Source: Horticoccus luteus (GTDB lineage Bacteria > Verrucomicrobiota > Verrucomicrobiia > Opitutales > Opitutaceae). From it: a DNA stretch of 32,000 bases. Position numbers and translations under genes: made by a program. Of the stretch, positions 8,931-23,577 are shown one piece after another. The number at the start of each line of letters is the position of its first letter. Position 1 is the stretch's first letter. Location: assembly GCF_019464535.1 (NCBI RefSeq), contig NZ_CP080507.1, forward strand, positions 2,460,001-2,492,000, in the 5' to 3' direction. Under the pieces are notes generated by a model. It made no database searches, was not told where the DNA came from, and saw only the letters and a program-made list of their open reading frames with translations.

Positions 8931-9015
8931 CTTCCGTGCCGCTCCCTCTCGCCCTTTCACTCCCCCAACCCGAGAAAGATTAAGATAACGATAACGAGCA
9001 CGATCGCCTAATCCG

Positions 9016-9550
9016 CCCGCTCGTCCCGTTGCGGAACGCGTCAGCGTTTCGCCGTCGCGGCCGCGCTCCGCGCTTCACCTCTCATCCCTGTGGGCCGGGT
9101 GCCCTCACCCGGCATCCTTCCGCGCCCCCCTCGGCTCCTTCAGGTTTCAAGTTTCAGCCTTCAGGTTTCCCTCCTCCGTCCCTCCTTCGCCGTCCACCCG
9201 CTCGTCCCGTAGCGGAACGCGTCAGCGTTTCGCCCGTCGCGGCCGCGCTCCGCGCTTCACCTCTCATCCCTGTGGGCCGGGTGCCCTCACCCGGCATCCT
9301 TCCGCGCCCCCCTCTGCTCCTTCAGGTTTCAAGTTTCAGCCTTCACGTTTCCCTCCTCCGTCCCTCCTTCGCCGTCCACCCGCTCGTCCCGTAGCGGAAC
9401 GCGTCAGCGTTTCGCCGTCGCGGCCGCCCTCCGCGCTTCATCCGCGTCCCTGTGGGTCGGGTGCCCTCACCCGGCATCCTTCCGCGCCCCCCTCTGGCTC
9501 CTTCAGGTTTCAAGTTTCAGCCTTCAGGTTTCCCTCCTCCGTCCGCCCTC
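9016..9550. repeat. tandem repeat, 3 units of ~181 bp
   Basis: Unit starts (CCCGCTCGTCCCGT) at 9016, 9197 and 9379. Each unit holds the hairpin GCGGAACGC-GTCA-GCGTTTCGC, the 29-bp REP-like hairpin, and TCAGGTTTCAAGTTTCAGCCTTCAGGTTTCC. It lies between the MBL gene and the 3' end of intI. Confidence 0.9.
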
Positions 9551-9587
9551 CTCCGTTCGTCCTCCGCCGCCCACCCACCCGCCCCCT

Positions 9588-10952
9588 TCACCCCGCATCC
9601 AGCGGACTCCGCACGCCCAGCCCCGGCTTCTGCATCACATGCGTATAGATCTGCGTCGTCTCCACGCTCTGGTGGCCGAGTAGTTCCTGCACCGTGCGGA
9701 TATCGGTGCCCGCCTCCAGCAGATGCGTCGCAAACGAGTGCCGCAGCACATGCGGCGTCACGCGTTTCGTCATCCCCGCCGCGCCCGCCGCCTTGCGCAC
9801 CGCATTCTGGAACGTCCCGTCGAGGATATGATGTCGCCGCCGCCGCCCCGTCTCCGGGTCCTGCATGAATTCGCGCGACGGCCACAACCACTGCCACTCC
9901 CACGTCATCCCCGCCTTGGGATATTTCCGGGCCAGCCCTTCCGGCAACCACACTCCCGGCGCCTCCGCCGCCCGGTCCTCCGCGAAAATCTCCCGCAGTC
10001 GGGCCAGATGAGCCTCCAGTTTTTCCCGCAGCGATTCCGGCAGCACCGTCAGCCGGTCCTTGTCGCCTTTCCCGCCGTAAACTTTCAATTGCCCGCGCGC
10101 CAGATCCAGGTGGTGCACGCGCAGCCGCAGCAGTTCCATCAGCCGCAGTCCACTGCCATACATCACCTCCGCCATCAGCCGGTAGCCGCGCGGCAATTGG
10201 TCCAGCACCTGCCGCACCTCCGCCTTGCTCAACACTGTCGGTATTCTCTCGCGAGCGCGCGCGCGCCGAAAATCCATTTCCCCCAGATCCAGCCGCAACG
10301 CTTCCTGCATGAAGAACACCAGCGCATTGAGCGCCTGCTTCTGCGTGGACGGCGCTGCCCGTTGTTCCACCGCCAGCGCGGAGAGAAACGCCGCCACGTC
10401 GTCGCCCGACGCCGTCTGAGGCAGACGCGGGGCCAGGAACCGCGCGAACCGCGCCGCCCATGCCCGATACGTCTGCTCCGTGCGCCACAAAAATCCCTTG
10501 CGCCGGATGGCCGTGATCAACGCGCGCTCCCACTCCGCTCCGCCCTGATCCGCCGCCGCCAGCGGCGGCACGGCCGGCCCCGCTCCCGGCCCCGACCGCC
10601 GCGGGTTATCCGCCGGCCGTTGCTCCCCGACCTCCGGCGCCACAAACCCGCGCGCCGCCGGGCGCGTCTTGCCCGCCGCTCTGGCCGCCTTGAAGAGCCA
10701 GGCGAACGCCGCGCGCTCGGCCCGCCGCGCGTTCTCCGTCAAACCGGCACGCGCCAGATGCCAGCGGATGAAACCCGCCGACAGCGGCCGGCCCGTGGCT
10801 TTGCAAGCTCGCAACAATCCTAAAATTGCCCTGACATGCGCCTGCTTCACCTCCGCCGACCATGCGCTCGCCCCGTTCAACACTTCGCCCCACTCCGGAA
10901 ATGACACGATTTCGTCCAGCTTTTGCTCGGTGCGCTCGCCGGCTAAAGCCAT
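9588..10952 (-). CDS. intI: integron integrase (tyrosine recombinase, IntI family) with N-terminal extension
   Basis: Track ORF 9588..11051 starts at a TTG. The first ATG is 10952 (MALAGERTEQ...). The IntI-specific additional segment is present: WLPEGLARKYPKAGMTWEWQWLWPSREFMQDPETGRRRRHHI. Compare IntI1 as I recall it: [21 protein letters not shown]...RRHHM. Catalytic HVLRHSFATHLL, LLGHQSVETTQIYTHV, and the C-terminal GVRSPLD shared with IntI1. Divergent from a plus-strand cassette array. Confidence 0.9.
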   Translation of the reverse strand: MALAGERTEQKLDEIVSFPEWGEVLNGASAWSAEVKQAHVRAILGLLRACKATGRPLSAGFIRWHLARAGLTENARRAERAAFAWLFKAARAAGKTRPAARGFVAPEVGEQRPADNPRRSGPGAGPAVPPLAAADQGGAEWERALITAIRRKGFLWRTEQTYRAWAARFARFLAPRLPQTASGDDVAAFLSALAVEQRAAPSTQKQALNALVFFMQEALRLDLGEMDFRRARARERIPTVLSKAEVRQVLDQLPRGYRLMAEVMYGSGLRLMELLRLRVHHLDLARGQLKVYGGKGDKDRLTVLPESLREKLEAHLARLREIFAEDRAAEAPGVWLPEGLARKYPKAGMTWEWQWLWPSREFMQDPETGRRRRHHILDGTFQNAVRKAAGAAGMTKRVTPHVLRHSFATHLLEAGTDIRTVQELLGHQSVETTQIYTHVMQKPGLGVRSPLDAG

Positions 10953-11143: not shown

Positions 11144-11150
11144 GTTCGGC
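11144..11150 (+). other. attI-side recombination core G|TTCGGC (start of cassette 1)
   Basis: GTTCGGC fits GTTRRRY apart from its fourth base (C). TTCGGC is the exact reverse complement of the R'' box GCCGAA(C) at 11496-11502 at the end of the same cassette. It lies ~190 bp upstream of the intI start in a lower-GC intergenic region. Confidence 0.65.
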
Positions 11151-11495: not shown

Positions 11496-11550
11496 GCCGA
11501 ACTCTGAGCGTTCTGCTGCGCCGTAGCGCGCAGCGGGACGCGGGTTGAAC
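11496..11550 (+). other. 55-bp attC-like imperfect palindrome (copy 1 of 5)
   Basis: GCCGAAC-TCTGAGCGTTCT-GCTGCGC-CGTAGC-GCGCAGC-GGGACGCGG-GTTGAAC. The outer boxes fit RYYYAAC (fourth base G in this copy) and GTTRRRY. Perfect 7-bp central stem plus GCGT/ACGC. Confidence 0.7.
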
Positions 11551-11588
11551 AAGCCCGTTTCGGAGGCGTCCGCGGTTCCGTCCGCCGC

Positions 11589-12992
11589 TTATGCGTTTTG
11601 TATTGGCCGCCAACCGCCGACGGGCGGAGCGCCGGACGGCGGCATCCTTCGCCGCGCGCGGGCGCGCGTGCCGGTGGCGTCTGTTTTCGCCCGCCGAGAG
11701 GGTGTCCGCCACCCGTCACCGGGCTCGCGAGCCGTCTTGCGTCCGTCGCGGCCAAGGCTGCCGCCGGCGGCACGGGGTGCGGGCCGCAATAATATAATAA
11801 GTTGGTCCCTGGTCCTTATACTCATCGCGTGCAGAGGGGCGGCGCCCGGGCCTGCCGCGGCAGCGTGCCCACGCGCACGAGCGTGAACCGTTCGCAGTGC
11901 GGGCAGCGCAAGTGCCAGCGCGGCGCCTCCGGCGGCGGCGCCGCGAGCACGATCGGCTTTTGCAGCAGCGTTTGTGTCCGTTGGCGCCCCGAGGGCACCC
12001 GCCACCGGCCAGCCCTTCGGGCCAACGCCTGCGGCGTTGCCATCTCCGCGCTGTCGCGCTACGTCCACCGTCATCCGGCGGGCGTGCGCCGCCGGGTGCA
12101 GCCAGCCGAAGTAACGCACGCGATGCTGGCCGGCCGGCGGCACGTGCTGCAAATACCGCCGCAGGAACTCTTCCGCGCCGAGCGTGCACTGCCGCCGCTG
12201 CTGCGTCTTCGTGTCGGTATAGTTAAACACCACGCGTTCGTCATCGGCGACGACGAGGCGCTCGTCGCTGATCGCAGTGCGGCTGACGTAGCGCGCGAGA
12301 TAGCGCACGACCGCCTCGCCGCTGCCGGCCGGCTGGCAGTGCACGACCCAACGGCTCCGCCACGTGCCGGCCGGAATCGAAGCGTGCCGCGCCGAAGCGC
12401 TCGCGCGCAGCACCGCCTCCATCCGCCCGCGAAACACTGCCGCCAGCTTCGCCACCGGCAGCAGCCAGTCGCGTTGCCGCGCGTTCACCCATTTATTGCC
12501 GTCGGCGCTGAGCCCGCCGCCGGGCACGATATAATGCACGTGCGGATGATGCTGGAGCTGCCGGCCCCAGGTGTGCAGCACGCCGACGAAGCCGAGTTCC
12601 GCACCGAGCAACCGCCGCTCCGCCGCGACTTGTTGCAACGTCGCCGCGCTCTCGCGGAAGAGCCGGTCGTGCATCAACGCCGGCTCGGCGGCGAAGACCG
12701 CGCGCAGTTCCTGCGGCACGGTGAACGTCACCAAAAAATACGGCACCGGCAGCAGCCGCGCCTCCTGCTGCGCCGTCCACGCCGCGGTGCGCTCGCCGCC
12801 GCAGCGCGGGCAAGCGCGATGGTGACAACTGTGATACGCGAAGTCCGTGCCCGCGCACTCCGTGCAGCGATACACGTGCCCGCCCAAGGCGGGCGTGCGG
12901 CAGCAGCGGATCGCTGCGAGCGCGCGCCGCGCCCGCGGCGCGCAATGCTCCGGCACGCGGGCGCGCGCCAGCCAGTCGGCGAGCACCGACAC
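11589..12992 (-). CDS. tnpA: IS91-family (HUH-Y2) transposase, C-terminus frameshifted relative to copy 3
   Basis: GTG start 3 nt after the recombinase stop. N-terminal zinc-binding region CRTPALGGHVYRCTECAGTDFAYHSCHHRACPRCG, HUH HPHVHYIVPGGG, Y2 motif VVRYLARYVSRTAISDERL. After ...AAHARRMTV the ORF leaves the frame that encodes the conserved CPHC zinc ribbon (that frame is ORF 11822..12043). The last ~110 residues as drawn are Ala/Arg/Gly-rich read-through. Confidence 0.75.
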   Translation of the reverse strand: MSVLADWLARARVPEHCAPRARRALAAIRCCRTPALGGHVYRCTECAGTDFAYHSCHHRACPRCGGERTAAWTAQQEARLLPVPYFLVTFTVPQELRAVFAAEPALMHDRLFRESAATLQQVAAERRLLGAELGFVGVLHTWGRQLQHHPHVHYIVPGGGLSADGNKWVNARQRDWLLPVAKLAAVFRGRMEAVLRASASARHASIPAGTWRSRWVVHCQPAGSGEAVVRYLARYVSRTAISDERLVVADDERVVFNYTDTKTQQRRQCTLGAEEFLRRYLQHVPPAGQHRVRYFGWLHPAAHARRMTVDVARQRGDGNAAGVGPKGWPVAGALGAPTDTNAAAKADRARGAAAGGAALALALPALRTVHARARGHAAAAGPGAAPLHAMSIRTRDQLIILLRPAPRAAGGSLGRDGRKTAREPGDGWRTPSRRAKTDATGTRARARRRMPPSGAPPVGGWRPIQNA

Positions 12993-12995
12993 CGG

Positions 12996-13961
12996 TCAGC
13001 GTGGTTCGAGCAACCGCGCGACCGCCGCGCGAGCGTGGCTCTCGTTGACCGCCGTCAGATGCGTATAGATCAACGTCGTCTCCAGCGAAGCGTGCCCCAG
13101 ATACGCCGAGATCAGCCGGATCGACACGCCCTCCTCGAGCAGATGCGTCGCATACGAATGCCGCAGCGTATGCACCACCGTGCCCGCCGGCAGCCGCGCC
13201 TCGGTCCGCGCCACCCGCAGGCAATGCTGCACCGAACCCACGCCCAGCGGCTCGACGGCGGCGGCCAGGTGCGCCCCGCGCGCCGGTTGCTCGCGCCAGC
13301 CGCGGCCGACCCCCGGGAAAATCCACCGCGGATGCCGGTGCGTCCGCCAGAACGCGCGCAACTCGTGCAACATCGCCTCCGGCAGCGGCACGTAGCGCTC
13401 CTTGTTGCCCTTCGCCTCGCGGATATGCACGCGGCCCGCTTCGCGCAGATCGCGCACCTCCAGGTTGACCGCCTCGCCGATGCGCAATCCGCACGCGTAG
13501 ATCAACCGCAGCAGTGTGCGGAAACGCGGCACCCGCACCACCGCGAACAGCCGCGCCACCTCTGCCCGCGTGAGCACGGTGGGAAGTTTTTGCGCTGACG
13601 GTGAGCGCACCAGATCGAACAGCTTCCAGTCGCGCCCGAGGTGCACGCCGAAGTAGGCCCGCATCGCCGCCACCGCGGTTCGCATCGACGAGGGCGAGTA
13701 GTGGTGTTCGTCCTTCAACCGCAGCAGATGCGCGCGGACCGCGGCCTCATCGAGCGCGGCCGGATCGCCCCCGTGGCGCGCCGCCAGCTTGCGGACAAAC
13801 CGCAGATACTCGGCCTGCGTCGCCGCCGCCAGCGAACGCAGCCGCATCGTCTCCGCGAAACGCTGCACCGACTCCGGATCGGGTGCGTGGATCTTCCTGG
13901 CGCCACCCCGCAGCGTGGACGCGTGCGTGGACTCTCTTCCCGTCGATTTTGATTTGGGCAT
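12996..13961 (-). CDS. tyrosine recombinase/integrase (element-borne)
   Basis: 321 aa with ATG at 13961. Catalytic constellation visible: GLRIGEA (R), KGNKERY (K), [12 protein letters not shown] (HxxR), LGHAS (H), LIYTHL (Y). SAM-like N-terminal domain ([13 protein letters not shown]). Confidence 0.88.
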
Positions 13962-14062
13962 AGACCCGCAGCCTTGCCAGCCACCGCCCTCCCGCCCATC
14001 CTTCCGCTCGTGCCCCGCCCCGCACTATATACACCCGCTCACCCCCGCCGCGCAGCGGCTTG

Positions 14063-14154
14063 GTTCAACCAGTCGCTACAGCGCAACGCCTCGACGGGGT
14101 CCGTTTCGAGTTTGGAGTCGCCAGCTCGGCGTGGCTGACCAGTGATCGTTGGGC
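14063..14154 (+). other. attC-type site (92 bp) GTTCAAC-CAG...GATC-GTTGGGC
   Basis: R''-like GTTCAAC (or native AAC only, see findings), imperfectly complementary arms, R' GTTGGGC at 14148-14154 followed 8 nt later by the next cassette's ATG. Confidence 0.65.
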
Positions 14155-14162
14155 AAAGAAAG

Positions 14163-14618
14163 ATGAGCACCATTTCGGTTACGCGCATCGCTGCGAATTT
14201 TAAGCCGACCGTGAATTATCCGCGGCTCGCGCTCGTGCACGATGGCCGGCGAGCACTCCTTTATTTCACTGGCCGACGGCAGCGCGGCGCCGAAGAAGAA
14301 AGAGCCGTCGCGGTATTCGAGGGCTGCTTGGCATCGCGGTTCGGTTACCCGAACGATGAAGCCCTGCCGGGTCATCCGCTGTATCGCTACGGTCTCGGCG
14401 ATTATGATTTCTTTGAAGTTTCGTCATCTCCGTGGATGGAAGAAGTCAGAGCCCAGAATCGCGTGTCATTCCCAAAGTTCGACATGCCTGCCAGAAAGCA
14501 TTTCATCGTGACCGCTCACGACGAAAGTTTTGAGTGCCTCGCAGATTCGGTAGCCGTTCATCCAGCATCCTCTTTTCCAGTTGAGCATTTGGCTCCACGT
14601 ATTTCCGCCGTCGAATGA
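14163..14618 (+). CDS. cassette ORF, hypothetical protein
   Basis: Track ORF 14142..14618 starts at a GTG inside the core site. ATG 14163 is preferred (MSTISVTRIAANFK...). 151 aa. Cassette start TTGGGC (14149) is complementary to R'' GCCCAAC (14623). Confidence 0.6.
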   Translation: MSTISVTRIAANFKPTVNYPRLALVHDGRRALLYFTGRRQRGAEEERAVAVFEGCLASRFGYPNDEALPGHPLYRYGLGDYDFFEVSSSPWMEEVRAQNRVSFPKFDMPARKHFIVTAHDESFECLADSVAVHPASSFPVEHLAPRISAVE

Positions 14619-14622
14619 AAAG

Positions 14623-14677
14623 GCCCAACTCTGAGCGTTCTGCTGCGCCGTAGCGCGCAGCGGGACGCGGGTTGAAC
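14623..14677 (+). other. 55-bp attC-like imperfect palindrome (copy 2 of 5)
   Basis: GCCCAAC...GTTGAAC, identical core to copy 1. Confidence 0.7.
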
Positions 14678-14715
14678 AAGCCCATTTCGAACGCGTCCGC
14701 GGTTCCGTCCGCCGC

Positions 14716-16119
14716 TTATGCGTTTTGTAGTGGCCGCCGACCGCCGATGGGCGGAGCGCCGGACGGCGGTATCCTTCGCCGGTCGCGGGCGCACGTGCCG
14801 GTAGCGTCTGTTTTCGTCCGCCGAGAGGGTGCCCGCCACCCTTCACCGGGCTCGCGAGCCGTCTTGCGTCGGTCGCGGCCAAGGCTGCCGCCGGCGGCAC
14901 GGGGAGCGAGTCGCAATAATATAAGAAGTTGGTCCCTGATCTTTATACTCATCGCTGGCAAAGGGGCGGCGCTCGCGCCTGCCGCGGCAGCGTGCCCACG
15001 CGCACGAGCGTGAAGCGTTCGCAGTGCGGACAACGCAAGTGCCAGCGCGGCGCCTCCGGCGGCGGCGCCGCGAGCACGATCGGCTTTTGCAGCAGCGTTT
15101 GTGTCCGTTGGCGCCCCGAGGGCACCCGCCATCGGCCAGCCCTTCGGGCCAACGCCTGCGGCGTTGCCATCTCCGCGCTGTCGCGCTACGTCCACCGTCA
15201 TCCGGCGGGCGTGCGCCGCCGGGTGCAACCAGCCGAAGTAACGCACGCGATGCTGGCCGGCCGGCGGCACGTGCTGCAAATACCGCCGCAGGAACTCTTC
15301 CGCGCCGAGCGTGCACTGCCGCCGCTGCTGCGTCTTCGTGTCGGTATAGTTAAACACCACGCGTTCGTCATCGGCGACGACGAGGCGCTCGTCGCTGATC
15401 GCAGTGCGGCTGACGTAGCGCGCGAGATAGCGCACGACCGCCTCGCCGCTGCCGGCCGGCTGGCAGTGCACGACCCAACGGCTCCGCCACGTGCCGGCCG
15501 GAATCGAAGCGTGCCGCGCCGGAGCGCTCGCGCGCAGCACCGCCTCCATCCGCCCGCGAAACACTGCCGCCAGCTTCGCCACCGGCAGCAGCCAGTCGCG
15601 TTGCCGCGCGTTCACCCATTTTTTGCCGTCGGGGCTGAGCCCGCCGCCGGGCACGATATAATGCACGTGCGGATGATGCTGGAGCTGCCGGCCCCAGGTG
15701 TGCAGCACGCCGACGAAGCCGAGTTCCGCACCGAGCAACCGCCGCTCCGCCGCGACTTGTTGCAACGTCGCCGCGCTCTCGCGGAAGAGCCGGTCGTGCA
15801 TCAACGCCGGCTCGGCGGCGAAGACCGCGCGCAGTTCCTGTGGCACGGTGAACGTCACCAAAAAATACGGCACCGGCAGCAGCCGCGCCTCCTGCTGCGC
15901 CGTCCACGCCGCGGTGCGCTCGCCGCCGCAGCGCGGACACGCCCGATGGTGACAACTGTGATACGCGAAGTCCGTGCCCGCGCACTCCGTGCAGCGATAC
16001 AAGTGCCCGCCCAAGGCGGGCGTGCGGCAGCGGCGGATCGCTGCGAGCGCGCGCCGCGCCCGCGGCGCGCAACGCTCCGGCACGCGGGCGCGCGCCAGCC
16101 AGTCGGCGAGCACCGACAC
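14716..16119 (-). CDS. tnpA: IS91-family (HUH-Y2) transposase, same frameshifted C-terminus as copy 1
   Basis: 467-aa ORF near-identical to 11589..12992. The zinc-ribbon C-terminus is in another frame (ORF 14949..15170). Confidence 0.75.
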   Translation of the reverse strand: MSVLADWLARARVPERCAPRARRALAAIRRCRTPALGGHLYRCTECAGTDFAYHSCHHRACPRCGGERTAAWTAQQEARLLPVPYFLVTFTVPQELRAVFAAEPALMHDRLFRESAATLQQVAAERRLLGAELGFVGVLHTWGRQLQHHPHVHYIVPGGGLSPDGKKWVNARQRDWLLPVAKLAAVFRGRMEAVLRASAPARHASIPAGTWRSRWVVHCQPAGSGEAVVRYLARYVSRTAISDERLVVADDERVVFNYTDTKTQQRRQCTLGAEEFLRRYLQHVPPAGQHRVRYFGWLHPAAHARRMTVDVARQRGDGNAAGVGPKGWPMAGALGAPTDTNAAAKADRARGAAAGGAALALALSALRTLHARARGHAAAAGASAAPLPAMSIKIRDQLLILLRLAPRAAGGSLGRDRRKTAREPGEGWRAPSRRTKTDATGTCARDRRRIPPSGAPPIGGRRPLQNA

Positions 16120-16122
16120 CGG

Positions 16123-17088
16123 TCAGCGTGGTTCGAGCAACCGCGCGACCGCCGCGCGAGCGTGGCTCTCGTTGACCGCCGTCAGATGCGTATAGATCAA
16201 CGTCGTCTCCAGCGAAGCGTGCCCCAGATACGCCGAGATCAGCCGGATCGACACGCCCTCCTCGAGCAGATGTGTCGCATACGAATGCCGCAGCGTATGC
16301 ACCACCGTGCCCGCCGGCAGCCGCGCCTCGGTCCGCGCCAGCCGCAGGCAATGCTGCACCGAGCCCACGCCCAGCGGCTCGACGGCGGCCGCCAGTTGCG
16401 CCGCACGCGCCGGTTGCTCGCGCCAGCCGCGGCCGACCCCCGGGAAAATCCACCGCGGATGCCGGTGCGTCCGCCAGAACGCGCGCAACTCGTGCAACAT
16501 CGCCTCCGGCAGCGGCACATAACGCTCCTTGTTGCCCTTCGCCTCGCGGATATGCACGCGACCCGCCTCGCGCAGATCGCGCACCTCCAGGTTGACCGCC
16601 TCGCCGATGCGCAATCCGCACGCGTAGATCAACCGCAGCAGCGTGCGAAACCGCGGCACCCGCACGACCGCGAACAGCCGCGCCACCTCTGCCCGCGTGA
16701 GCACGGTGGGAAGTTTTTGCGCTGACGGTGAGCGCACCAGATCGAACAGCTTCCAGTCGCACCCGAGGTGCACGCCGAAGTAAGCCCGCATCGCCGCCAC
16801 TGCGGTTCGCATCGACGAAGGCGAGTAGTGGTGTTCGTCCTTCAACCGCAGCAGATGCGCGCGGACCGCGGCCTCCTCGAGCGCGGCCGGATCGCCCCCG
16901 TGGCGCGCCGCCAGCTTGCGGACAAACCGCAGATACTCGGCCTGCGTCGCCGCCGCCAGCGAACGCAGCCGCATCGTCTCCGCGAAACGCTGCACCGACT
17001 CCGGATCGGGTGCGTGGATCTTCCTGGCGCCACCCCGGAGCGTGGACGCGTGCGTGGACTCTCTTCCCGTCGATTTTGATTTGGGCAT
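16123..17088 (-). CDS. tyrosine recombinase/integrase (element-borne)
   Basis: Track ORF 16123..17145, trimmed to ATG 17088 ([11 protein letters not shown]...) by homology with copies 1 and 3. Confidence 0.88.
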
Positions 17089-17189
17089 AGACCCGCAGCC
17101 TTGCCAGCCACCGCACTCCCGCCCATCCTTTCGCCCGTGCCCCACTCCGCACTATATACACCCGCCCACCCCCGCCGCGCAGCGGCTTG

Positions 17190-17255
17190 GTTCAACCAGG
17201 CGGCACAGCCAACGCCGGGGCTGCGCCCCAGCGTGGCTGACTGCTGACGATGGGC
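17190..17255 (+). other. attC-type site (66 bp) GTTCAAC-CAG...GAC-GATGGGC
   Basis: Arms CAGGCGGCACAGCCAACGCCGGGG / CCCCAGCGTGGCTGACTGCTG are imperfectly complementary with bulges. Closely related to the intact attC at 17673-17739. Confidence 0.7.
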
Positions 17256-17263
17256 GAGGAAAG

Positions 17264-17665
17264 ATGATCTCAGCGATACGCACCGCCTTTCGCACTTGGA
17301 CTCCGTGGGAGGAAGCTCTCACGAGTGCCGTGCTTTCAAAGCTTGGTCCCAAGACGCAGAGCATACTTCGCACGCAGCTCGCCGCCGTGAATAAGGTTCA
17401 GCGCATCCTCGGCTGGCGGGAGATCGACCTCTACGTGAAGAAGAAAGGAAGAGTTGATCGAAGCGGTCTGCCGACTCTCTTTGATGATCGTGAGTTTGTG
17501 CTAGCGAAGGCGGTCACGAAGGTGGACGGAGTGAAATTTTATACGACGGTCACCTGCGTCGGCGGCTATTTGTTTTCGTTCGAGAGCGACACGGAAGTTC
17601 GTCGCTTCGCATTCCGAGATGATTGCGAGATTGAGGTGCTAGAGTTTGATTCCCGCTACGCATGA
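17264..17665 (+). CDS. cassette ORF, hypothetical protein
   Basis: Track ORF 16916..17665, trimmed to ATG 17264 (MISAIRTAFRTW...), 8 nt after core G|ATGGGC. 133 aa. The upstream part of the track ORF is antisense read-through of the mobile unit. Confidence 0.6.
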   Translation: MISAIRTAFRTWTPWEEALTSAVLSKLGPKTQSILRTQLAAVNKVQRILGWREIDLYVKKKGRVDRSGLPTLFDDREFVLAKAVTKVDGVKFYTTVTCVGGYLFSFESDTEVRRFAFRDDCEIEVLEFDSRYA

Positions 17666-17672
17666 AAACGGA

Positions 17673-17739
17673 GCCCATCCAGAGCATCACAGACAACGGC
17701 CGGGCTGCGCCCGGTCGTGTCTGACTGCTGACGTTAGGC
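17673..17739 (+). other. uninterrupted attC (67 bp) GCCCATC-CAG...GAC-GTTAGGC
   Basis: R'' GCCCATC is the complement of this cassette's start (G)ATGGGC. Arms CAGAGCATCACAGACAACGGCCGGG / CCCGGTCGTGTCTGACTGCTG pair with bulges. R' GTTAGGC. This is the only cassette junction in the array without foreign DNA. Confidence 0.8.
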
Positions 17740-17745
17740 AAAGAA

Positions 17746-18141
17746 ATGAGCATCGATTTGATCGTGCCTTTGGTTGAGCAGGTCGTCGACGGGCAGCGGG
17801 ACGAAAGCGAAGGCACTTTCTTTTCCTATCGGCATGCGCAGGAGATTCACGCTTTAGGAGTGAAGCACGAGTTCACTTCGGGGTCCTCGTGGTCTCAGGT
17901 ATGCGTCAGTGTCGTAGTCAGCTCCGCGCTCACACCGAAGATTTGGGTGCGAATTCTGTGGTCGCGACCGAAGCTCGAATACCCGAAAGAAGAAAGTATG
18001 CCATGGGAGTTTCCACTGTCGGAGGTAGGCGTTCGCATGTTCGCGAAGGAGTGGCCGGGAATTCGGACGCAGCTAGGACAAGCGATCGCAAGAGGTCGTC
18101 CTCCAGAAAAGCCTAACTCTGAGCGTTCTGCTGCGCCGTAG
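17746..18141 (+). CDS. cassette ORF, hypothetical protein
   Basis: 131 aa. ATG 6 nt after GTTAGGC. The reading frame runs through R'' GCCTAAC (18111) and stops 24 nt into the 55-bp palindrome. Confidence 0.55.
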   Translation: MSIDLIVPLVEQVVDGQRDESEGTFFSYRHAQEIHALGVKHEFTSGSSWSQVCVSVVVSSALTPKIWVRILWSRPKLEYPKEESMPWEFPLSEVGVRMFAKEWPGIRTQLGQAIARGRPPEKPNSERSAAP

Positions 18142-18165
18142 CGCGCAGCGGGACGCGGGTTGAAC
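18111..18165 (+). other. 55-bp attC-like imperfect palindrome (copy 3 of 5)
   Basis: GCCTAAC...GTTGAAC. R'' is complementary to the cassette start TTAGGC (17734). Confidence 0.7.
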
Positions 18166-18436
18166 AAGCCCGTTTCGAAGGCGTCCGCGGTTCCGTCCGC
18201 CGCTTATGCGTTTTGTAGTGGCCTCCGACCGCCGATGGGCGGAGCGCCGGACGGCGGCATCCTTCGCCGGTCGCGGGCGCACGTGCCGGTAGCGTCCGTT
18301 TTCGCCCGCCGAGAGGGAGTCCGCCACCCGTCACCGGGGGCGCGAGCCGTCTTGCGTCGGTCGCGGCCAAGGCTGCCGCCGGCGGCACGGGGCGCGGGCC
18401 GCAATAATATAATAAGTTGGTCCCTGATCTTTATAC

Positions 18437-19516
18437 TCATCGCTGGCAAAGGGGCGGCGCTCGCGCCTGCCGCGGCAGCGTGCCCACGCGCACGAGCGTG
18501 AACCGTTCGCAGTGCGGACAACGCAAGTGCCAGCGCGGCGCCTCCGGCGGCGGCGCCGCGAGCACGATCGGCTTTTGCAGCAGCGTCTCCACCGTCATCC
18601 GGCGGGCGTGCGCCGCCGGGTGCAACCAGCCGAAGTAACGCACGCGATGCTGGCCGGCCGGCGGCACGTGCTGCAAATACCGCCGCAGGAACTCTTCGGC
18701 GCCGAGCGTGCACTGCCGCCGCTGCTGGGTCTTCGCATCGGTATAGTTAAACACCACGTGTTCGTCATCGGCGACGACGAGGCGCTCGTCGCTGATCGCA
18801 GTGCGACTGACGTAGCGCGCGAGATAGCGCACGACCGCCTCGCCGCTGCCGGCCGGCTGGCAGTGCACGACCCAACGGCTCCGCCACGTGCCGGCCGGAA
18901 TCAAAGCGTGCCGCGCCGGAGCGCTCGCGCGCAGCACCGCCTCCATCCGCCCGCGAAACACCGCCGCCAGCTTCGCCACCGGCAGCAGCCAGTCGCGTTG
19001 CCGCGCGTTCACCCATTTATTGCCGTCGGCGCTGAGCCCGCCGCCGGGCACGATATAATGCACGTGCGGATGATGCTGGAGCTGCCGGCCCCAGGTGTGC
19101 AGCACGCCGACGAAGCCGAGTTCCGCACCGAGCAACCGCCGCTCCGCCGCGACTTGTTGCAACGTCGCCGCGCTCTCGCGGAAGAGCCGGTCGTGCATCA
19201 ACGCCGGCTCGGCGGCGAAGACCGCGCGCAGTTCCTCCGGCACGGTGAACGTCACCAAAAAATACGGCACCGGCAGCAGCCGCGCCTCCTGCTGCGCCGT
19301 CCACGCCGCGGTGCGCTCGCCGCCGCAGCGCGGACAAGCGCGATGGTGACAACTGTGATACGCGAAGTCCGTGCCCGCGCACTCCGTGCAGCGATACACA
19401 TGCCCGCCCAAGGCGGGCGTGCGGCAGCGGCGGATCGCTGCGAGCGCGCGCCGCGCCCGCGGCGCGCAACGCTCCGGCACGCGGGCGCGCGCCAGCCAGT
19501 CGGCGAGGACCGACAC
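18437..19516 (-). CDS. tnpA: IS91-family (HUH-Y2) transposase, single uninterrupted ORF including C-terminal zinc ribbon
   Basis: 359 aa with the same N-terminal, HUH and Y2 motifs. The C-terminus ...AAHARRMTVETLLQKPIVLAAPPPEAPRWHLRCPHCERFTLVRVGTLP is in frame. Confidence 0.85.
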   Translation of the reverse strand: MSVLADWLARARVPERCAPRARRALAAIRRCRTPALGGHVYRCTECAGTDFAYHSCHHRACPRCGGERTAAWTAQQEARLLPVPYFLVTFTVPEELRAVFAAEPALMHDRLFRESAATLQQVAAERRLLGAELGFVGVLHTWGRQLQHHPHVHYIVPGGGLSADGNKWVNARQRDWLLPVAKLAAVFRGRMEAVLRASAPARHALIPAGTWRSRWVVHCQPAGSGEAVVRYLARYVSRTAISDERLVVADDEHVVFNYTDAKTQQRRQCTLGAEEFLRRYLQHVPPAGQHRVRYFGWLHPAAHARRMTVETLLQKPIVLAAPPPEAPRWHLRCPHCERFTLVRVGTLPRQARAPPLCQR

Positions 19517-19519
19517 CGG

Positions 19520-20485
19520 TCAGCGCGGTTCGAGCAACCGCGCGACCGCCGCGCGAGCGTGGCTCTCGTTGACCGCCGTCAGATGCGTATAGATCAACGT
19601 CGTCTCCAGCGAAGCGTGCCCCAGATACGCCGAGATCAGCCGGATCGACACGCCCTCCTCGAGCAGATGCGTCGCATACGAATGCCGCAGCGTATGCACC
19701 ACCGTGCCCGCCGGCAGCCGCGCCTCGGTCCGCGCCAGCCGCAGGCAATGCTGCACCGAGCCCACGCCCAGCGGCTCGACGGCGGCCGCCAGTTGCGCCG
19801 CGCGCGCCGGTTGCTCGCGCCAGCCGCGGCCGACCCCCGGGAAAATCCACCGCGGATGCCGGTGCGTCCGCCAGAACGCGCGCAACTCGTGCAACATCGC
19901 CTCCGGCAGCGGCACGTAGCGCTCCTTGTTGCCCTTCGCCTCGCGGATATGCACGCGGCCCGCTTCGCGCAGATCGCGCACCTCGAGGTTGACCGCCTCG
20001 CCGATGCGCAATCCGCACGCGTAGATCAACCGCAGCAGTGTGCGGAAACGCAACTCGCGCACCACCGCGAACAGCCGCGCCACCTCTGCCCGCGTGAGCA
20101 CCGTGGGCAGCTTTTGCGCCGACGGCGAACGCACCAGATCGAACAGCTTCCAGTCGCGCCCGAGGTGCAGGCCGAAGTAGGCCCGCATCGCCGCCACCGC
20201 GGTTCGCATCGACGAGGGCGAGTAGTGGTGTTCGTCCTTCAACCGCAGCAGATGCGCGCGGACCGCGGCCTCATCGAGCGCGGCCGGATCGCCGCCGTGG
20301 CGCGCCGCCAGCTTGCGGACAAACCGCAGATACTCGGCCTGCGTCGCCGCCGCCAGCGAACGCAGCCGCATCGTCTCCGCGAAACGCTGCACCGACTCCG
20401 GATCGGGTGCGTGGATCTTCCTGGCGCCACCCCGGAGCGTGGACGCGTGCGTGGACTCTCTTCCCGTCGATTTTGATGTGGGCAT
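19520..20485 (-). CDS. tyrosine recombinase/integrase (element-borne)
   Basis: 321 aa, near-identical to 12996..13961. ATG at 20485. Confidence 0.88.
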
Positions 20486-20586
20486 AGACCCGCAGCCTTG
20501 CCAGCCACCGCACTCCCGCCCATCCTTCCGCCCGTGCCCCGCCCCGCACTATATACACCCGCTCACCCCCGCCGCGCAGCGGCTTG

Positions 20587-20647
20587 GTTCAACCAGGCGC
20601 TACAGCCAACGGCCGCAGCCGGCCGTGGCTGATCTCGAACGTTGGGC
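20587..20647 (+). other. attC-type site (61 bp) GTTCAAC-CAG...GAAC-GTTGGGC
   Basis: Central stem CGGCC-GCA-GCCGGCCG, flanked by CAGGCGCTACAGCCAA / GTGGCTGATCTCG. R' GTTGGGC at 20641. Confidence 0.65.
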
Positions 20648-20656
20648 AAAACAAAG

Positions 20657-21148
20657 ATGAAGCGCGGCCAGGTTCACAGGGCTTTTGTCGAGCAGTTCTC
20701 ATTTCCTCCGCTGGAGCGGCCAGCGCCCGTGACGCACAGCGCTTTGCTCGCAGTCGAGGAAAGCCTCACGACCACGTTTCCTTCGTCTTACCTTTCATTT
20801 CTCGTCGAACACGGTCCGATCTTCACGCCGGACATTCTGCCTCTGATGGTCGCTGCTCATGAAGTGGGCGGTAGCCCTGAAAAAGAAGGCTTCGACGTTC
20901 GGGAGTTTTTTCCTCCAGCCGAGATCGTGCGGACGTATTCGCTCTACGTCAGTGGCGGCATGGATCATTCGCTTATTCCATTCGCCATGGATTCGGGTGG
21001 AAGCGTGTTTGGTTTTCGGAGAGAGAAGATCGAAGTCCGTCCAGACGATGCTCCAGTTTTGTTCTTCGATCACGACTATTGCCAGATTCGTCCCGAAGCG
21101 GATTCTTTCGATGCGTGGCTCGAAGGATTTCTGGGCCTCAAAGCGTGA
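20657..21148 (+). CDS. cassette ORF, SMI1/KNR4 (SUKH-1) family protein, immunity-protein-like
   Basis: Track ORF 20642..21148 starts at a TTG in the core site. ATG 20657 is preferred. The layout ALLAVEESLTTTFPSSYLSFLVEHG...IPFAMDSGGSVFGF...FFDHD resembles the SMI1_KNR4 fold signature. Family assignment is from memory, not from a search. Confidence 0.6.
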   Translation: MKRGQVHRAFVEQFSFPPLERPAPVTHSALLAVEESLTTTFPSSYLSFLVEHGPIFTPDILPLMVAAHEVGGSPEKEGFDVREFFPPAEIVRTYSLYVSGGMDHSLIPFAMDSGGSVFGFRREKIEVRPDDAPVLFFDHDYCQIRPEADSFDAWLEGFLGLKA

Positions 21149-21158
21149 AAAAGAAAAG

Positions 21159-21213
21159 GCCCAACTCTGAGCGTTCTGCTGCGCCGTAGCGCGCAGCGGG
21201 ACGCGGGTTGAAC
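21159..21213 (+). other. 55-bp attC-like imperfect palindrome (copy 4 of 5)
   Basis: GCCCAAC...GTTGAAC. R'' is complementary to the cassette start TTGGGC (20642). Confidence 0.7.
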
Positions 21214-21263
21214 AAGCCCGTTCCGAAGGCAGCAGGAGCGTCGACCGCCGCTTATGCGTTTTG

Positions 21264-21675
21264 GATAAAGCCACAAAACCGCACGCCTTGACTCTAGACA
21301 AACGAAGCGAATAGCGGCACTCCCGCCCGAGCACGTTGCACACGCCAAGTTTCCAAGCTCGACGAAAGACGTTTCGCATTGCTCTCGCCATCCGCATCTT
21401 GCGCAACGTCTTCTCCAAGCCCCCCCGGTCTGAACTCCCCTGTCCATACACGCGCAACTCGCCTTCGCGGCTGCCTTCAGCTGTCGCTATCGTGATTGTA
21501 TCTTTGTGGACATCCAAGCCCACGTATCTTTGCTTGAGCTTCATGTGCTTGCCTCTGGTTTTGGTTGTTTCGGTTACACGCCACACCCCTGCGGATCGGC
21601 GCTCTTCGAGCGTAACCCGCGTTCACCAAAGACAAACACCCACTTCGCTTTCCGCTCCTTCATCGCAGCTATAAT
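21264..21675 (-). mobile_element. degenerate IS110-family footprint A
   Basis: Homologous to 22607-23006. Retains the transposase 5' region and the first ~50 codons. Ends at ...CATCGCAGCTATAAT, 2 nt before the next cassette's core-like CCTAGGC. Confidence 0.7.
21395..21544 (-). pseudogene. IS110-family (DEDD) transposase N-terminal remnant
   Basis: From ATG 21544: MKLKQRYVGLDVHKDTITIATAEGSREGELRVYGQGSSDRGGLEKTLRKM, the canonical IS110 N-terminus (VG[IL]DV[HS]K). The rest of the ~350-aa enzyme is missing. The lower coordinate is approximate. Confidence 0.7.
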
Positions 21676-21690
21676 ACCTAGGCAACAATT

Positions 21691-22182
21691 ATGAAGCAGT
21701 CACTCGCGTCCCTTCTCTGCGTCTCAGTCTTTATCAGCGCTGGATGCGTGTCGGTCACTCAGCAGCCTACGGACGCGCCCATGACTCCGAGCAAAGCTTA
21801 CGTTGCTCGGTTCTTCGAAAAGCACTCGTGGAAGTCGTTCGAGGCTTGCACGGTCCGGTCAGCGGACGTTCCCAAGGACGGCGCTTCGTGTGAGTTTATC
21901 AAACGCGGCGATGAGCTCATTTCTGCCGTGCCGCCGGGTCGGCACAAATTGTATTTGGACGTTATGACGTCATCCGAAAGCGTCTTTCGTAGCTTTGGCA
22001 CTGCGAAGTTCGCGCTGACGGCCGACCTCCAACCTGGAGTTATGTATGCAGTTTCGTTGGCGCGATCCGGTGATCGAGTGGAAGTGAGCATCGTCGACCG
22101 TGCGAGCCGAGCGGTTGTCTCTGAAAAGCTTTCGTTCGACATCCACCATCCGGTGATAATTCCAATACCAGTTCCGATATGA
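21691..22182 (+). CDS. cassette ORF, putative lipoprotein
   Basis: 163 aa. Signal peptide with lipobox MKQSLASLLCVSVFISAG|C. Markedly lower GC than the flanks. Confidence 0.65.
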   Translation: MKQSLASLLCVSVFISAGCVSVTQQPTDAPMTPSKAYVARFFEKHSWKSFEACTVRSADVPKDGASCEFIKRGDELISAVPPGRHKLYLDVMTSSESVFRSFGTAKFALTADLQPGVMYAVSLARSGDRVEVSIVDRASRAVVSEKLSFDIHHPVIIPIPVPI

Positions 22183-22514
22183 AGCCGCTAGGCAGAAACA
22201 GAAATATGAAGCGCCTATTCCTGCGTTGGTTTTTCTGCGGCACGCCCGCTGAATACGAAGAGGGGAAGCAAATTCACTTCTCCGAACTGAAGGTATATCG
22301 GAAGCGTTGGTATTACATTGCGGGCCTTGTGCTCACCGTTCTTCCTCTCGTTTATCTGATTCGGCAATACGACTCATGGGAGGTTTGGATGTGTGTCTTG
22401 TCTGTCGCTATCGGAAATATGCTGATTCGCGATACCATTTCCGAGCATTACGTTGTGAAGCTCCTGCGCTCTAGGCGCCCAACAGATGTAATTAGAAATG
22501 AAAAAGAAGCCTAA
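22179..22514 (+). CDS. cassette ORF, small membrane protein (2 TM)
   Basis: 111 aa. ATGA overlap with the preceding ORF. TM helices YYIAGLVLTVLPLVYLI and VWMCVLSVAIGNMLI. The stop TAA lies inside R'' GCCTAAC. Confidence 0.55.
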   Translation: MKPLGRNRNMKRLFLRWFFCGTPAEYEEGKQIHFSELKVYRKRWYYIAGLVLTVLPLVYLIRQYDSWEVWMCVLSVAIGNMLIRDTISEHYVVKLLRSRRPTDVIRNEKEA

Positions 22515-22563
22515 CTCTGCGCGTTCTGCTGCGCCGTAGCGCGCACGGGGACGCGGGTTGAAC
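22509..22563 (+). other. 55-bp attC-like imperfect palindrome (copy 5 of 5, most diverged)
   Basis: GCCTAAC-TCTGCGCGTTCTGCTGCGCCGTAGCGCGCACGGGGACGCGG-GTTGAAC. R'' is complementary (5 of 6) to CTAGGC at 21678. Confidence 0.65.
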
Positions 22564-22606
22564 CAGCCCGGGACGAAGGCGGCCGCGGCTTCGGCCGCCG
22601 ATTATG

Positions 22607-23006
22607 TAGAAAGCCATCCAACCGCATGCCTTGACTATTGACCACCGAAGCGAATTTCGGGCACCTCTGCCCGAACACGCGAAACACGCCAATTTTCCGA
22701 GTGCGAGGCGAGACGTTCGCGTTGCGCCCTTGAACCAGATCGTGCGCGACGTCGTCTCCAAGACTCGCAGGTTTGAACTCCCCTGTCCCTCCACGCGCAA
22801 CTTGCCTTCCGCCGTCGCTATCGTGATCGCATCTTTGTGGACATCCAGGCCCACGTATCTTTGTTTGAGCTTCATGTGCTTGCCTCCGGTTTTGGTTGTA
22901 TCGGTTACACGCCACACCCCTGCGGATCGGCGCTCTTCGAGCGTAACCCGCGTTTACCAAGGACAAGCACCCTCCTCGCTTTCCGCTCCTTCATCGCAGC
23001 TATAAT
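22607..23006 (-). mobile_element. degenerate IS110-family footprint B
   Basis: Diverged copy of footprint A with small indels. Ends at the same ...CATCGCAGCTATAAT. Confidence 0.7.
22738..22875 (-). pseudogene. IS110-family transposase N-terminal remnant
   Basis: From ATG 22875: MKLKQRYVGLDVHKDAITIATAEGKLRVEGQGSSNLRVLETT..., then no further homology. The lower coordinate is approximate. Confidence 0.65.
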
Positions 23007-23021
23007 GCCCCGGTAAAATCG

Positions 23022-23507
23022 ATGATCGCCATTCACTGCAGCTTGATGTTCGTCGGCACATATTACTTTGCGGCGATCATTCAGACGTTGCTCCACCGAA
23101 TCTTCGGCCATCACGACCGCATTCGAAAGGTGTACGAGACGCATGCGAAGGGCCATCACGGAAAGTATCCGCCACATCGCCTGATTGCTGACGAGTGGTT
23201 GGACAGCGAGCAGCATGTGATGTGGTATTACGCAATTCCATTTGTCCCTGTGGCGCTATTGGTCGCGTGGCTTTTGGGGACGTGGCTTTTCTTGAGCCAC
23301 GTAGCTGCGATGGCGTTCGCGATCTGGTGGCACATCTATCTCCACAAGCAGTATCACCTCAGAGGTAGCGTTTGGGAGAGGTTCCAGTGGTTTAGGACGA
23401 AGCGCGAACTGCACTTCATCCACCATCGCGAGGTCCATAGGAATTACGCCATAGTCGAATACTGGATCGATGTTTTTCTCGGCACGCGCAAAGAGCCGAA
23501 CCAGTAA
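23022..23507 (+). CDS. small membrane protein with histidine boxes (fatty-acid hydroxylase / sterol desaturase-like superfamily)
   Basis: 161 aa. HRIFGHH, KGHHGKY, HIYLHKQYH and HFIHHREVH clusters between hydrophobic segments. No attC follows it. Confidence 0.5.
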   Translation: MIAIHCSLMFVGTYYFAAIIQTLLHRIFGHHDRIRKVYETHAKGHHGKYPPHRLIADEWLDSEQHVMWYYAIPFVPVALLVAWLLGTWLFLSHVAAMAFAIWWHIYLHKQYHLRGSVWERFQWFRTKRELHFIHHREVHRNYAIVEYWIDVFLGTRKEPNQ

Positions 23508-23577
23508 ACCTAAAACCAAAACCCCATGTCTTGACTCTTGACCCACGAAGTAGTGAACGGCGGTAGATCCCTTCGCC
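23508..23577 (-). mobile_element. partial IS110-family footprint C (transposase-distal end only)
   Basis: AACCTAAAACCAAAACCCCATGTCTTGACTCTTGACCCACGAAGTAGTG... aligns with 21268-21335 (AAGCCACAAAACCGCACGCCTTGACTCTAGACAAACGAAGCGAAT) and 22611-22680. Confidence 0.5.

Follow-up and report, generated by a model that had tools for sequence, protein, structure and literature searches.

A repeated attC-like palindrome in a chromosomal integron of Horticoccus luteus read as the terminus of an IS91-family element that inserts into attC sites

The DNA considered here, hereafter the window, is a stretch of 32,000 nucleotides from Horticoccus luteus (Verrucomicrobiota, Opitutaceae; contig NZ_CP080507.1, positions 2,460,001 to 2,492,000). 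It contains a chromosomal integron, defined by an integron integrase gene, intI (9588–10952, minus strand; 380 bits with TIGR02249, the cutoff being 265; the domains Phage_integrase and SAM_4 are also present), in whose cassette array a short palindromic module resembling an attC site occurs five times. The subject of this article is the nature of that module, which a first-pass annotation made from the sequence alone had described as a leader shared by two unrelated kinds of inserted transposon and which probably represents the end of a single kind of IS91-family element. The array lies on the plus strand; the core on its attI side, GTTCGGC (11144–11150), read from the sequence, is complementary to the box GCCGAAC at 11496–11502, cassette 1 begins at TTCGGC and the cassettes extend to ~23510, after which comes a leuB-like gene.

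Three long units, 93–98% identical to one another and all on the minus strand, interrupt this array: copy 1 (11503–14069, 2567 bp), whose boundaries are those seen at 27 5′ ends and at least about 200 3′ ends elsewhere, copy 2 (14630–17196, 2567 bp), delimited from the sequence and by repeat-family comparison, and copy 3 (18118–20593, 2476 bp), which lacks 91 bp present in the other two (11960–12060 and 15085–15185, to be compared with 18560–18590). In copy 1 a terminal hairpin (11503–11543) is followed by GTTGAAC (11544–11550), by the tail of the oriIS end (11551–11600), by the transposase gene tnp (11589–12992, minus strand; Y2_Tnp and Zn_Tnp_IS91 domains), by the tyrosine recombinase gene int (12996–13961, minus strand; identified with Pfam and NCBIfam) and by the terIS region with its palindrome GCCGCGCAGCGGC and the terminal 7-mer GTTCAAC (14063–14069). 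Read on the coding strand, the layout is GTTGAAC, CAAGCC (the terIS palindrome, GCCGCTGCGCGGC), int, tnp, the motif AACACAAAGCGCATAAG, a variable tail, GGGCTT, GTTCAAC, the hairpin and CTCAGA. The transposase matches PF04986 (2e-55), PF14319 (3e-26) and NF033538 (360 bits against a cutoff of 125), and its HxH and Y..Y motifs (HPHVH, YLARY) are intact in all three copies. The canonical 359-amino-acid protein with its C-terminus (WHLRCPHC...PRQARAPP) is encoded by copy 3 only; in copies 1 and 2 the frame is shifted and extends to 467 amino acids, with the stop inside the tail motif CTTATG. An IS91 transposase annotated in H. luteus is 94% identical to it, and its close relatives are all from Opitutaceae.

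The module itself was searched for over the whole window, with shuffled sequences as control, by means of a 48-nt core (TCTGAGCG...GGGTTGAAC) with at most three mismatches allowed. Exactly five matches were obtained, all on the plus strand (0.00 expected from the shuffles), four of them without mismatch (11503–11550, 14630–14677, 18118–18165 and 21166–21213) and the fifth, at 22516–22563, with three; together with the 7 nt upstream of each they reproduce the five 55-bp palindromes previously listed. Each has the end boxes RYYYAAC...GTTRRRY, in the form GCCNAAC...GTTGAAC, and is followed by a tail, AAGCCCG...CCGCCGCTTATG(CGTTTTG), whose middle varies and in copy 5 is a perfect GGCGGCC-N8-GGCCGCC hairpin, as had been reported and as is seen again when the five copies are aligned. 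The first 7 nt vary from copy to copy (GCCGAAC, GCCCAAC, GCCTAAC, GCCCAAC and GCCTAAC in copies 1 to 5), so that, of the 55-bp palindrome proposed as the repeated unit, the core is indeed repeated and the first 7 nt belong to something else, namely the R″ box of the upstream cassette (see below). The homology among the five copies stops after ~105 bp, beyond which copies 1–3 continue into the IS91/recombinase unit, in agreement with the first-pass annotation and with the domains identified, and copies 4 and 5 into a different common sequence. What is conserved is therefore a stretch of ~98 bp made up of the 41-nt hairpin, GTTGAAC and a tail of ~50 nt ending in CTTATGCGTTTTG. Folded as it stands, the module does not reach a better energy than shuffled sequences on either strand, and an Rfam scan of the whole window (E ≤ 1) gave no match.

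The target of the insertions emerges from the base complementarity that governs integron cassettes. Integron cassettes start with six bases which, with a G placed before them, are complementary to the R″ box of their own attC. The rule holds at the one uninterrupted attC of the array (17673–17739, plus strand; R″ GCCCATC, R′ GTTAGGC), whose cassette starts with ATGGGC, and it holds at five of the five modules, where the cassette starts TTCGGC, TTGGGC, TTAGGC, TTGGGC and (T)TAGGC correspond to GCCGAAC, GCCCAAC, GCCTAAC, GCCCAAC and GCCTAAC. Since R″ pairs with the start of its own cassette at all five copies, the RYYYAAC heptamer must be the R″ of the upstream cassette and the constant sequence begins only after it. 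All on the plus strand, the boxes in question are those of cassette 1 (11496–11502, the target side of the first insertion, complementary to G+TTCGGC), cassette 2 (14623–14629, complementary to TTGGGC at 14149–14154), cassette 4 (18111–18117, complementary to TTAGGC at 17734–17739), the cassette preceding copy 4 (21159–21165, complementary to TTGGGC at 20642–20647) and the two-gene cassette 21679–22515 preceding copy 5 (22509–22515, complementary to (GT)TAGGC at 21679–21683). The cassette preceding copy 4 (20657–21148) encodes a SUKH/SMI1-KNR4 family protein with an immunity-protein-like fold.

The missing parts of these sites lie at the other side of the units. To the right of each of the three, after ...GCGGCTTG-GTTCAAC, stands the remainder (L″, loop, L′ and R′) of an ordinary attC of the type found uninterrupted at 17673–17739, a resemblance already noted for the half-sites right of the IS91 units and upheld here. 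The remainder for cassette 1 (14070–14154, 85 nt, R′ GTTGGGC) was displaced by the first insertion, that for cassette 2 occupies 17197–17255 (59 nt, R′ GATGGGC) and that for cassette 4 20594–20647 (54 nt, R′ GTTGGGC), all on the plus strand. Because the three differ in sequence and length behind units that are 93–98% identical, they belong to the target cassettes and not to the mobile unit. When the R″ of cassette 2 is joined to its displaced remainder, the product folds like the free attC, with the complete hairpin (−22.8 kcal/mol, z −3.5). In the present combination of R″ and palindrome, by contrast, nothing but the inner stem forms, R″ being left unpaired and not pairing with GTTGAAC. In the free attCs of related arrays CAG follows directly after R″, and at occupied sites CAG likewise follows directly after GTTCAAC; the last three nucleotides of the element (AAC) equal the last three of R″, and the flanks R″ and L″ rebuild an attC with the R″-CAG architecture of the free sites. 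The element thus sits, in a single orientation, between the R″ (RYYYAAC) and the L″ of an otherwise ordinary attC, with the consequence that the upstream cassette is left with R″ plus the hairpin of the element, which together resemble a short attC, and that the rest of the true attC is found beyond the element.

The same arrangement recurs far outside the window. A pattern scan of one genome per species yielded 75 copies, almost all in metagenome-assembled genomes of Opitutaceae, and a scan of metagenomes, with a pattern that did not demand the IS91 tail, matched at least 120 stretches, at least about 116 of which are true copies; among the matches listed, 85 have the full tail and motif, about a dozen have a truncated tail and one (L190) is a clean solo hairpin, variant motifs occurring among the others. 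Together this makes at least about 200 copies in Opitutaceae genomes and metagenomes, with the same hairpin bearing compensatory changes, the same orientation and the same GTTNGGC flank. Outside the hairpin, the flanking sequence follows the logo G-[T/A]-T-N-G-G-C, complementary to an attC R″ and always in one orientation; positions 1–3 of G-[T/A]-T-N are matched in 84, 85 and 81 of 87 copies, the metagenome copies agree with this, and at the 5′ ends attC L″ sequence plus GTTGAAC directly precedes the element in 22 of 27 cases. All of 11 contigs with transposases 70–80% identical to that of the window have int and then tnp, followed downstream by the motif AACACAAAGCGCATAAG, ~30 variable nucleotides, GGGCTT, GTTCAWC, a hairpin of differing sequence, CTCWRA and a variable flank, and upstream of int these relatives show variable attC-like sequence, G[T/A]TGAAC and CAAGCCGCTGCGCGGCG.

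These ends agree with what is known of the family. IS91-type elements insert beside a 5′-GTTC or CTTG tetranucleotide that abuts oriIS, start or are cut at a similar tetranucleotide at terIS, and have one subterminal palindrome at the terIS end and either one or two at the oriIS end (PMC13181058). The element of the window begins with GTTG(AAC), has one terIS and two oriIS palindromes and is followed by GTTN; since it is inserted between R″ and L″, its oriIS end is adjoined on the coding strand by GTTNGGC, that is by GTTN as in other IS91 members.

A comparable end structure is found where attC sites are not expected. The best plasmid matches of the recombinase Int adjoin IS91 transposases, in Herpetosiphon (42% identity) and on plasmids of Bradyrhizobium, Rhizobium and Sinorhizobium (~37%). 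The Bradyrhizobium element runs from (G)ATTGAAC-GAAGCCGCTGGCGCGGC to GCTTC-GTTCAAT-hairpin-CAGAACCCTCAAGA, and in three independent insertions on Bradyrhizobium plasmids the common sequence extends exactly from GATTGAAC to ...CTCAAGATT (...CAGAACCCTCAAGATT), which places the terminal hairpin inside the mobile unit. Integrons are absent from alpha-proteobacteria (PMC4889954). The occurrence of the same architecture outside integrons argues that the hairpin is an intrinsic end structure of this IS91 subgroup and that the specificity for attC is a specialization of the Opitutaceae lineage.

Conservation of the hairpin is visible in its base pairing. Among 45 distinct variants, 96.6% of the cells are paired, compared with 83.8% for shuffled sequences, and when the partners are slid the proportion does not exceed 55%; double-change cells number 80 against 26 in shuffles, and five pairs are compensatory. 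It is the inner stem, and by covariation only, that is significant. On the window (non-coding) strand one T·G pair is invariant and a second is frequent, both corresponding to C·A mismatches on the opposite strand.

Several kinds of derivative occur: solo hairpins ending at the inner GTTGAAC, a mini element of ~100 nt, 14-nt micro-duplications and tails cut at the motif, all of which may be interpreted as the products expected of an enzyme that nicks and joins at NAAC/GTTC motifs. In L020 (reverse strand, 988–1180) a head-to-tail junction, hairpin-GTTGAAC-AAAGCCGC (AAAGCCGCTGCG), is followed by ~130 bp of the 5′ end without the int gene. The mini element, in L155 (reverse strand, ~480–610), reads GTTG/CATAAGCGG...tail...GTTCAAC-hairpin (the slash marking the boundary), lies between the L″ and the R″ of an attC and may be a non-autonomous derivative. 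The last bases of the element are duplicated in tandem (GAAC-NCTCWGA-GTT twice) between hairpin and target R″ at several loci, over 14 nt in L039, L057, L062, L146, L155 and L194 and over a longer stretch in L010 and L082. A hairpin with a truncated tail also stands at the boundary between the last cassette and the chromosomal genes in L026, L035, L048/L154/L175/L200, L073, L076 and L081, which suggests that these elements help to shape the ends of arrays.

Copies 4 and 5 of the module, taken by the first-pass annotation as evidence that a second, unrelated kind of transposon shares the leader, turn out to be stumps of the IS91 element. Copy 4 (21166–21263, minus strand) consists of the hairpin, GTTGAAC and 50 nt of the oriIS tail and is cut directly after CTTATGCGTTTTG; copy 5 (22516–22606, minus strand) consists of the diverged hairpin with its three mismatches, GTTGAAC and 43 nt of tail. 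Between the first stump and an IS110 remnant lies a segment of ~105 nt (21264–21368), referred to here as X. The remnant (21369–21678, minus strand), of IS1111-attC type, comprises a left end, with the 5′ leader of the transposase gene, and the first ~50–58 codons, and its last bases, ...GCTATAATACC, directly border TAGGC, with which the next cassette begins; a second X (22607–22712) and remnant together occupy 22607–23009 (minus strand) and are ~75–91% identical to the first. The two IS110 footprints recognized previously are genuine, their first 50 codons being apparently those of a DEDD transposase: they give no Pfam hit and are 64% identical to the N-terminus of the full-length protein of L072, which has DEDD_Tnp_IS110 and Transposase_20 domains.

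The full-length relatives in L014 and L072 couple the DEDD protein with a non-coding region of ~420 nt downstream of the gene and with subterminal inverted repeats (CACGCAGCTA and TAGCTGCGTG) that leave a left extension of 7 nt. The IS1111 group, in which the guide RNA is encoded 3′ of the transposase, is recognized by a long non-coding region after tnp and by subterminal inverted repeats whose extensions are short and asymmetric (PMC11187229). These relatives have entered attC between GT and T of R′, their left end adjoins the TRRRY with which the next cassette starts, and by their sequence they behave as IS1111-attC elements. The same junction is seen in copy 4 (...CTATAATACC/TAGGC), L014, L072 and L110; that of copy 5 is atypical, its remnant ending against CCGGTAAAATCG and not against a TRRRY start. 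Since the footprints keep the junction on the R′ side, a later deletion is the best account of how they became joined to the IS91 stump: one attC would have received an IS91-type element on its R″ side and an IS110 element on its R′ side, and a deletion would subsequently have removed the IS91 tail beyond 43–50 nt, the attC core and the IS110 element through codon ~50–58. L110 carries an independent fusion of an IS91 stump with an IS110 stump, with other breakpoints, and truncated IS91 tails recur in other genomes, often broken at the same conserved motif. The idea that copies 4 and 5 are miniature inverted-repeat transposable elements with both IS110 ends was discarded, the right-end inverted repeat (TAGCTGCG..) being absent. 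The paradox of two unrelated transposons with one leader is thereby resolved for the window. That the module is never seen without an insert holds good, as the module is part of the insert.

As for X, BLAST against the window and ~1 Mb of loci returned nothing besides the known pair of copies except a weak match of 24 nt where the array ends, a metagenome scan for its motif gave 0 hits, and alignment (MAFFT) with the IS110 non-coding regions gave ~45–50% identity, which is unconvincing. The weak match concerns the first ~45 nt of X (core CTTGACTCTTGAC), which resemble 23508–23555, directly after the open reading frame of the last cassette (24 nt, 87.5%, E 0.16). The last bases of the IS110 left end are TATAAT, or TATAGT in the case of L014 and L110. 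This hexamer lies a few bases ahead of the downstream cassette (window 21666–21690; L014 7338–7360; L072 1978–1998; L110 638–660) and, judged by its sequence, could serve as an outward promoter for that cassette.

Taken together, the data make it very probable that the ~98 bp conserved behind each R″ box form the oriIS-side end of an attC-targeting IS91-family element equipped with an IntI/Xer-like recombinase. One of the three options offered by the first-pass annotation, that of a mobile-element end, is to this extent borne out, hairpin and tail forming such a terminus in at least about 200 copies, also outside integrons; its corollary that the IS110 elements landed in older IS91 units has to be amended, as their relatives insert between GT and T of R′ and not inside the IS91 element.

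A number of observations weigh against this interpretation. The classical IS91 rules would also permit an oriIS end at GGGCTT/GTTC, in which case the hairpin would formally lie outside the element, and the two solo hairpins (L036, L190) would suit a hairpin that pre-existed as target. A true empty site was not recovered for any insertion, BLAST of the outer flanks against all loci returning the same insertions in other samples, and exact-protein look-ups for two window cassettes, made in search of uninterrupted copies, found no record; the absence of a target duplication and the exact position of the cut (AA/C or AAC/) are for this reason deduced from the attC architecture. Copies 4 and 5, while 10–25% diverged and placed behind different cassettes, share one and the same junction between tail and X. 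Finally, the tyrosine recombinase may be the real integrase.

The strand used, the chemistry and the order of events may be envisaged as follows. In the IS91 family the functional intermediate is a single-stranded circle of the bottom strand (PMC13181058), with which the non-coding strand of the present element, carrying T·G and not C·A, would correspond. The HUH Y2 transposase would nick after NAAC on this strand, which is the top strand of the integron, and release a single-stranded circle with the junction ...GGCTTGGTTCAAC/TCTGAGCG..., in which the 7-mers GTTCAAC and GTTGAAC, the flanking GGCTT and AAGCC and the hairpin would form one long attC-like stem. This hypothetical junction has a computed fold of −24.8 kcal/mol (z −2.9), compared with −21.1 for the other strand; the head-to-tail junction in L020 has just this form. 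Insertion of the circle would follow, next to the AAC of an attC that is folded or single-stranded, and the tyrosine recombinase may assist in targeting or integration.

The role of Int gives rise to the most serious alternative, which touches the mechanism and not the identity of the module. Among NCBIfam profiles Int matches the integron integrase best, above XerC and XerD, with 162 bits in two stretches against a cutoff of 265, and the catalytic R...HxxR...Y region is preserved in it; aligned with the local IntI it shows 32% identity, with gaps at IntI residues ~300–375, and it accompanies the transposase in every relative examined (Opitutaceae, Chloroflexota and alpha-proteobacteria). Int, rather than the HUH transposase, might therefore catalyze integration, the HUH enzyme making only the single-stranded circle: the attC mimic on the circle (R″ = GTTCAAC, hairpin, R′ = GTTGAAC) would recombine with the R″ of a folded attC top strand, as the mirror image of cassette integration by IntI. 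The folding of the circle junction as one hairpin with perfectly complementary RYYYAAC and GTTRRRY boxes speaks for such a scheme, as does an insertion point within 1 nt of the mirrored IntI crossover. On the other hand, Int falls below the integron-integrase cutoff and lacks the IntI-specific extra segment, so that it does not qualify as an integron integrase proper; the same ends are kept in relatives from integron-free bacteria; the canonical IS91 rules account for ends and target without Int; and the derivatives break at NAAC/GTTC, as HUH cleavage predicts. This alternative is possible, though we would assign it no more than a minor share of the probability, and a rather smaller share goes to the complete two-enzyme scheme, in which the HUH enzyme peels off a single-stranded “cassette mimic” that Int integrates into the top strand at the mirrored IntI crossover. 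If true, the latter would make the element an integron parasite that uses integron-style chemistry on the opposite strand and would account for the presence of a tyrosine recombinase in this IS91 subgroup.

Far less probable is the first option of the first-pass annotation, that of a preferred target attC with a landing pad. In this reading both IS91 and IS110 elements would be drawn to the GTTGAAC core of the palindrome, GAAC being the IS91 target. The sequence GTTGAAC/AAGCCC does put the classical target GAAC directly beside the oriIS tail, and the two solo hairpins lack an IS91 body. However, these are the only clean solo copies among at least about 200 (L036 being the only one among the genome loci), and a relaxed search without the IS91 “CTT” in ~0.5 Mb of array-rich genome loci found no others, so that the suggested check for insert-free copies did not bear out a consensus attC of the array. 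Free attCs of the hairpin type were absent from ~1 Mb of array-rich loci, the target being the R″/L″ boundary of ordinary attCs. Furthermore, in pairs of copies from the same genome the hairpin is identical in 39 of 42 cases when the tails are at least 85% identical and in 4 of 23 when they are less than 60% identical, the corresponding figures between genomes being 65% and 4%; the variant therefore tracks the IS lineage rather than the host, the opposite of what a host-specific landing pad would do. Behind unrelated cassettes four of the five window copies are identical over 48 nt, a constancy at odds with the cassette-specific variation of attC sites. The equivalent hairpin inside the repeated unit of the Bradyrhizobium plasmids, the entry of the IS110 relatives into the R′ of ordinary attCs and the lack of pairing between R″ and GTTGAAC all point in the same direction.

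It is even less likely that the IS91/recombinase unit is an ordinary cassette captured by IntI, extending from TTGAAC to an attC with R″ = GTTCAAC, the palindrome being the attC of the preceding cassette. In three of the three copies TTGAAC is indeed complementary to GTTCAAC, but the supposed attC of the unit would be wholly different in loop and length among three near-identical copies, the preceding R″ matches the start of its own cassette and has its pairing partner beyond the unit, and the same element occurs outside integrons. In addition, a hairpin with an inner 7-mer other than GTTCAWC, the excision product predicted for IntI (hairpin, then the TTRRRY of another cassette), was not present in the examined loci. 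Finally, the third option of the first-pass annotation, a decayed gene for an IS110/IS1111 bridge or seek RNA, favoured by the encoding of IS1111-type guide RNAs 3′ of the transposase (PMC11187229), by the position of the module on that side of the footprints in copies 4 and 5 and by hairpin pairs that are G·U-compatible on one strand, is hardly credible, given that the ~420-nt non-coding regions of L014 and L072 are dissimilar to the module, that almost all of the at least about 200 copies have no IS110 nearby, that the G·T-tolerant strand is antisense to the IS110 transposase, that Rfam gave no match and that the module adjoins R″ where the IS110 target is R′.

Viewed as an attC-targeting IS91-type element, the unit of the window shares with IS91, IS801 and IS1294 the Y2 HUH transposase with an N-terminal zinc-binding domain, the orientation-specific insertion at GTTC/CTTG-type sequences at oriIS, downstream of tnpA, the subterminal palindromes, the truncated or one-ended derivatives and, so far as the attC architecture suggests, probably the lack of an obvious target duplication. 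It differs from them in having the gene of an IntI/Xer-like tyrosine recombinase upstream, in that its terminal 7-mers are a perfect inverted pair around an extra outer hairpin, and in that target recognition by the Opitutaceae element takes in the complete R″ box of attC (GCCNAAC), always at one position. ISfinder presumably lists an IS91 subgroup with such a recombinase and no known role for it, of which the literature searched gives no description.

With the IS1111-attC group (ISPa21, ISPst6, ISKpn4), of which the window holds two stumps and L014, L072 and L110 fuller copies, the element has in common a single position and orientation in attC; the enzymes are unrelated, however, being DEDD with seekRNA there and HUH with a tyrosine recombinase here, the insertion point lies between GT and T of R′ there and at the R″/L″ boundary here, and the module is not part of the IS1111-attC element. 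The group IIC-attC introns are likewise specialists of the attC hairpin, with fixed orientation and a single-stranded or structured target, but they are retroelements that enter the attC bottom strand and have no protein or sequence kinship with the present element. As to attC sites themselves, the hybrid of R″, hairpin and GTTGAAC has RYYYAAC...GTTRRRY boxes and a length of ~55 nt, and the predicted circle junction would be a better mimic still; the R boxes of the hybrid are nevertheless unpaired, one sequence recurs behind different cassettes and follows the IS lineage, and the element divides the real attC in two. The ISCR elements of complex class 1 integrons are also IS91-related, rolling-circle and integron-associated, solo oriIS ends beside foreign DNA being typical of them, but ISCR1 lies beyond the 3′ conserved segment and not in attC, has a Y1-type transposase and lacks a tyrosine recombinase.

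To our knowledge, specific targeting of attC has so far been known only for IS1111-attC insertion sequences and group IIC-attC introns, and a search of the full-text literature, of incomplete coverage, found no description of an IS91-type element with this property. An IS91 lineage with an IntI-like recombinase that appears to be highly specific for the R″/L″ boundary of attC and leaves an attC look-alike behind would accordingly be new. It would add a third and mechanistically different kind of attC-targeting element, a rolling-circle HUH element that is abundant, with at least about 200 insertions across the Opitutaceae. Splitting of attC at a fixed point, with the look-alike hairpin staying upstream and the true core moved 2.5 kb away, should affect cassette mobility and will mislead the annotation of attC sites and cassettes. 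The system also appears tractable for the study of both the role of the recombinase in this IS91 subgroup and the recognition of structured single-stranded targets by HUH enzymes.

Some further features of the locus may be mentioned. The open reading frame of IntI has 454 amino acids, and the integron-integrase profile spans residues 147–453 only, so that either the protein has a long N-terminal extension or its true start lies further in. At the other end of the array, the last cassette (23010–23560), whose open reading frame (23022–23507) encodes a His-rich membrane protein, is without an attC. Beyond the 3′ end of intI are three tandem repeats of ~182 bp (9052–9596, also 8863–8931), each bearing a hairpin motif, GGGTGCCCTCACCC, that occurs twice more further upstream.

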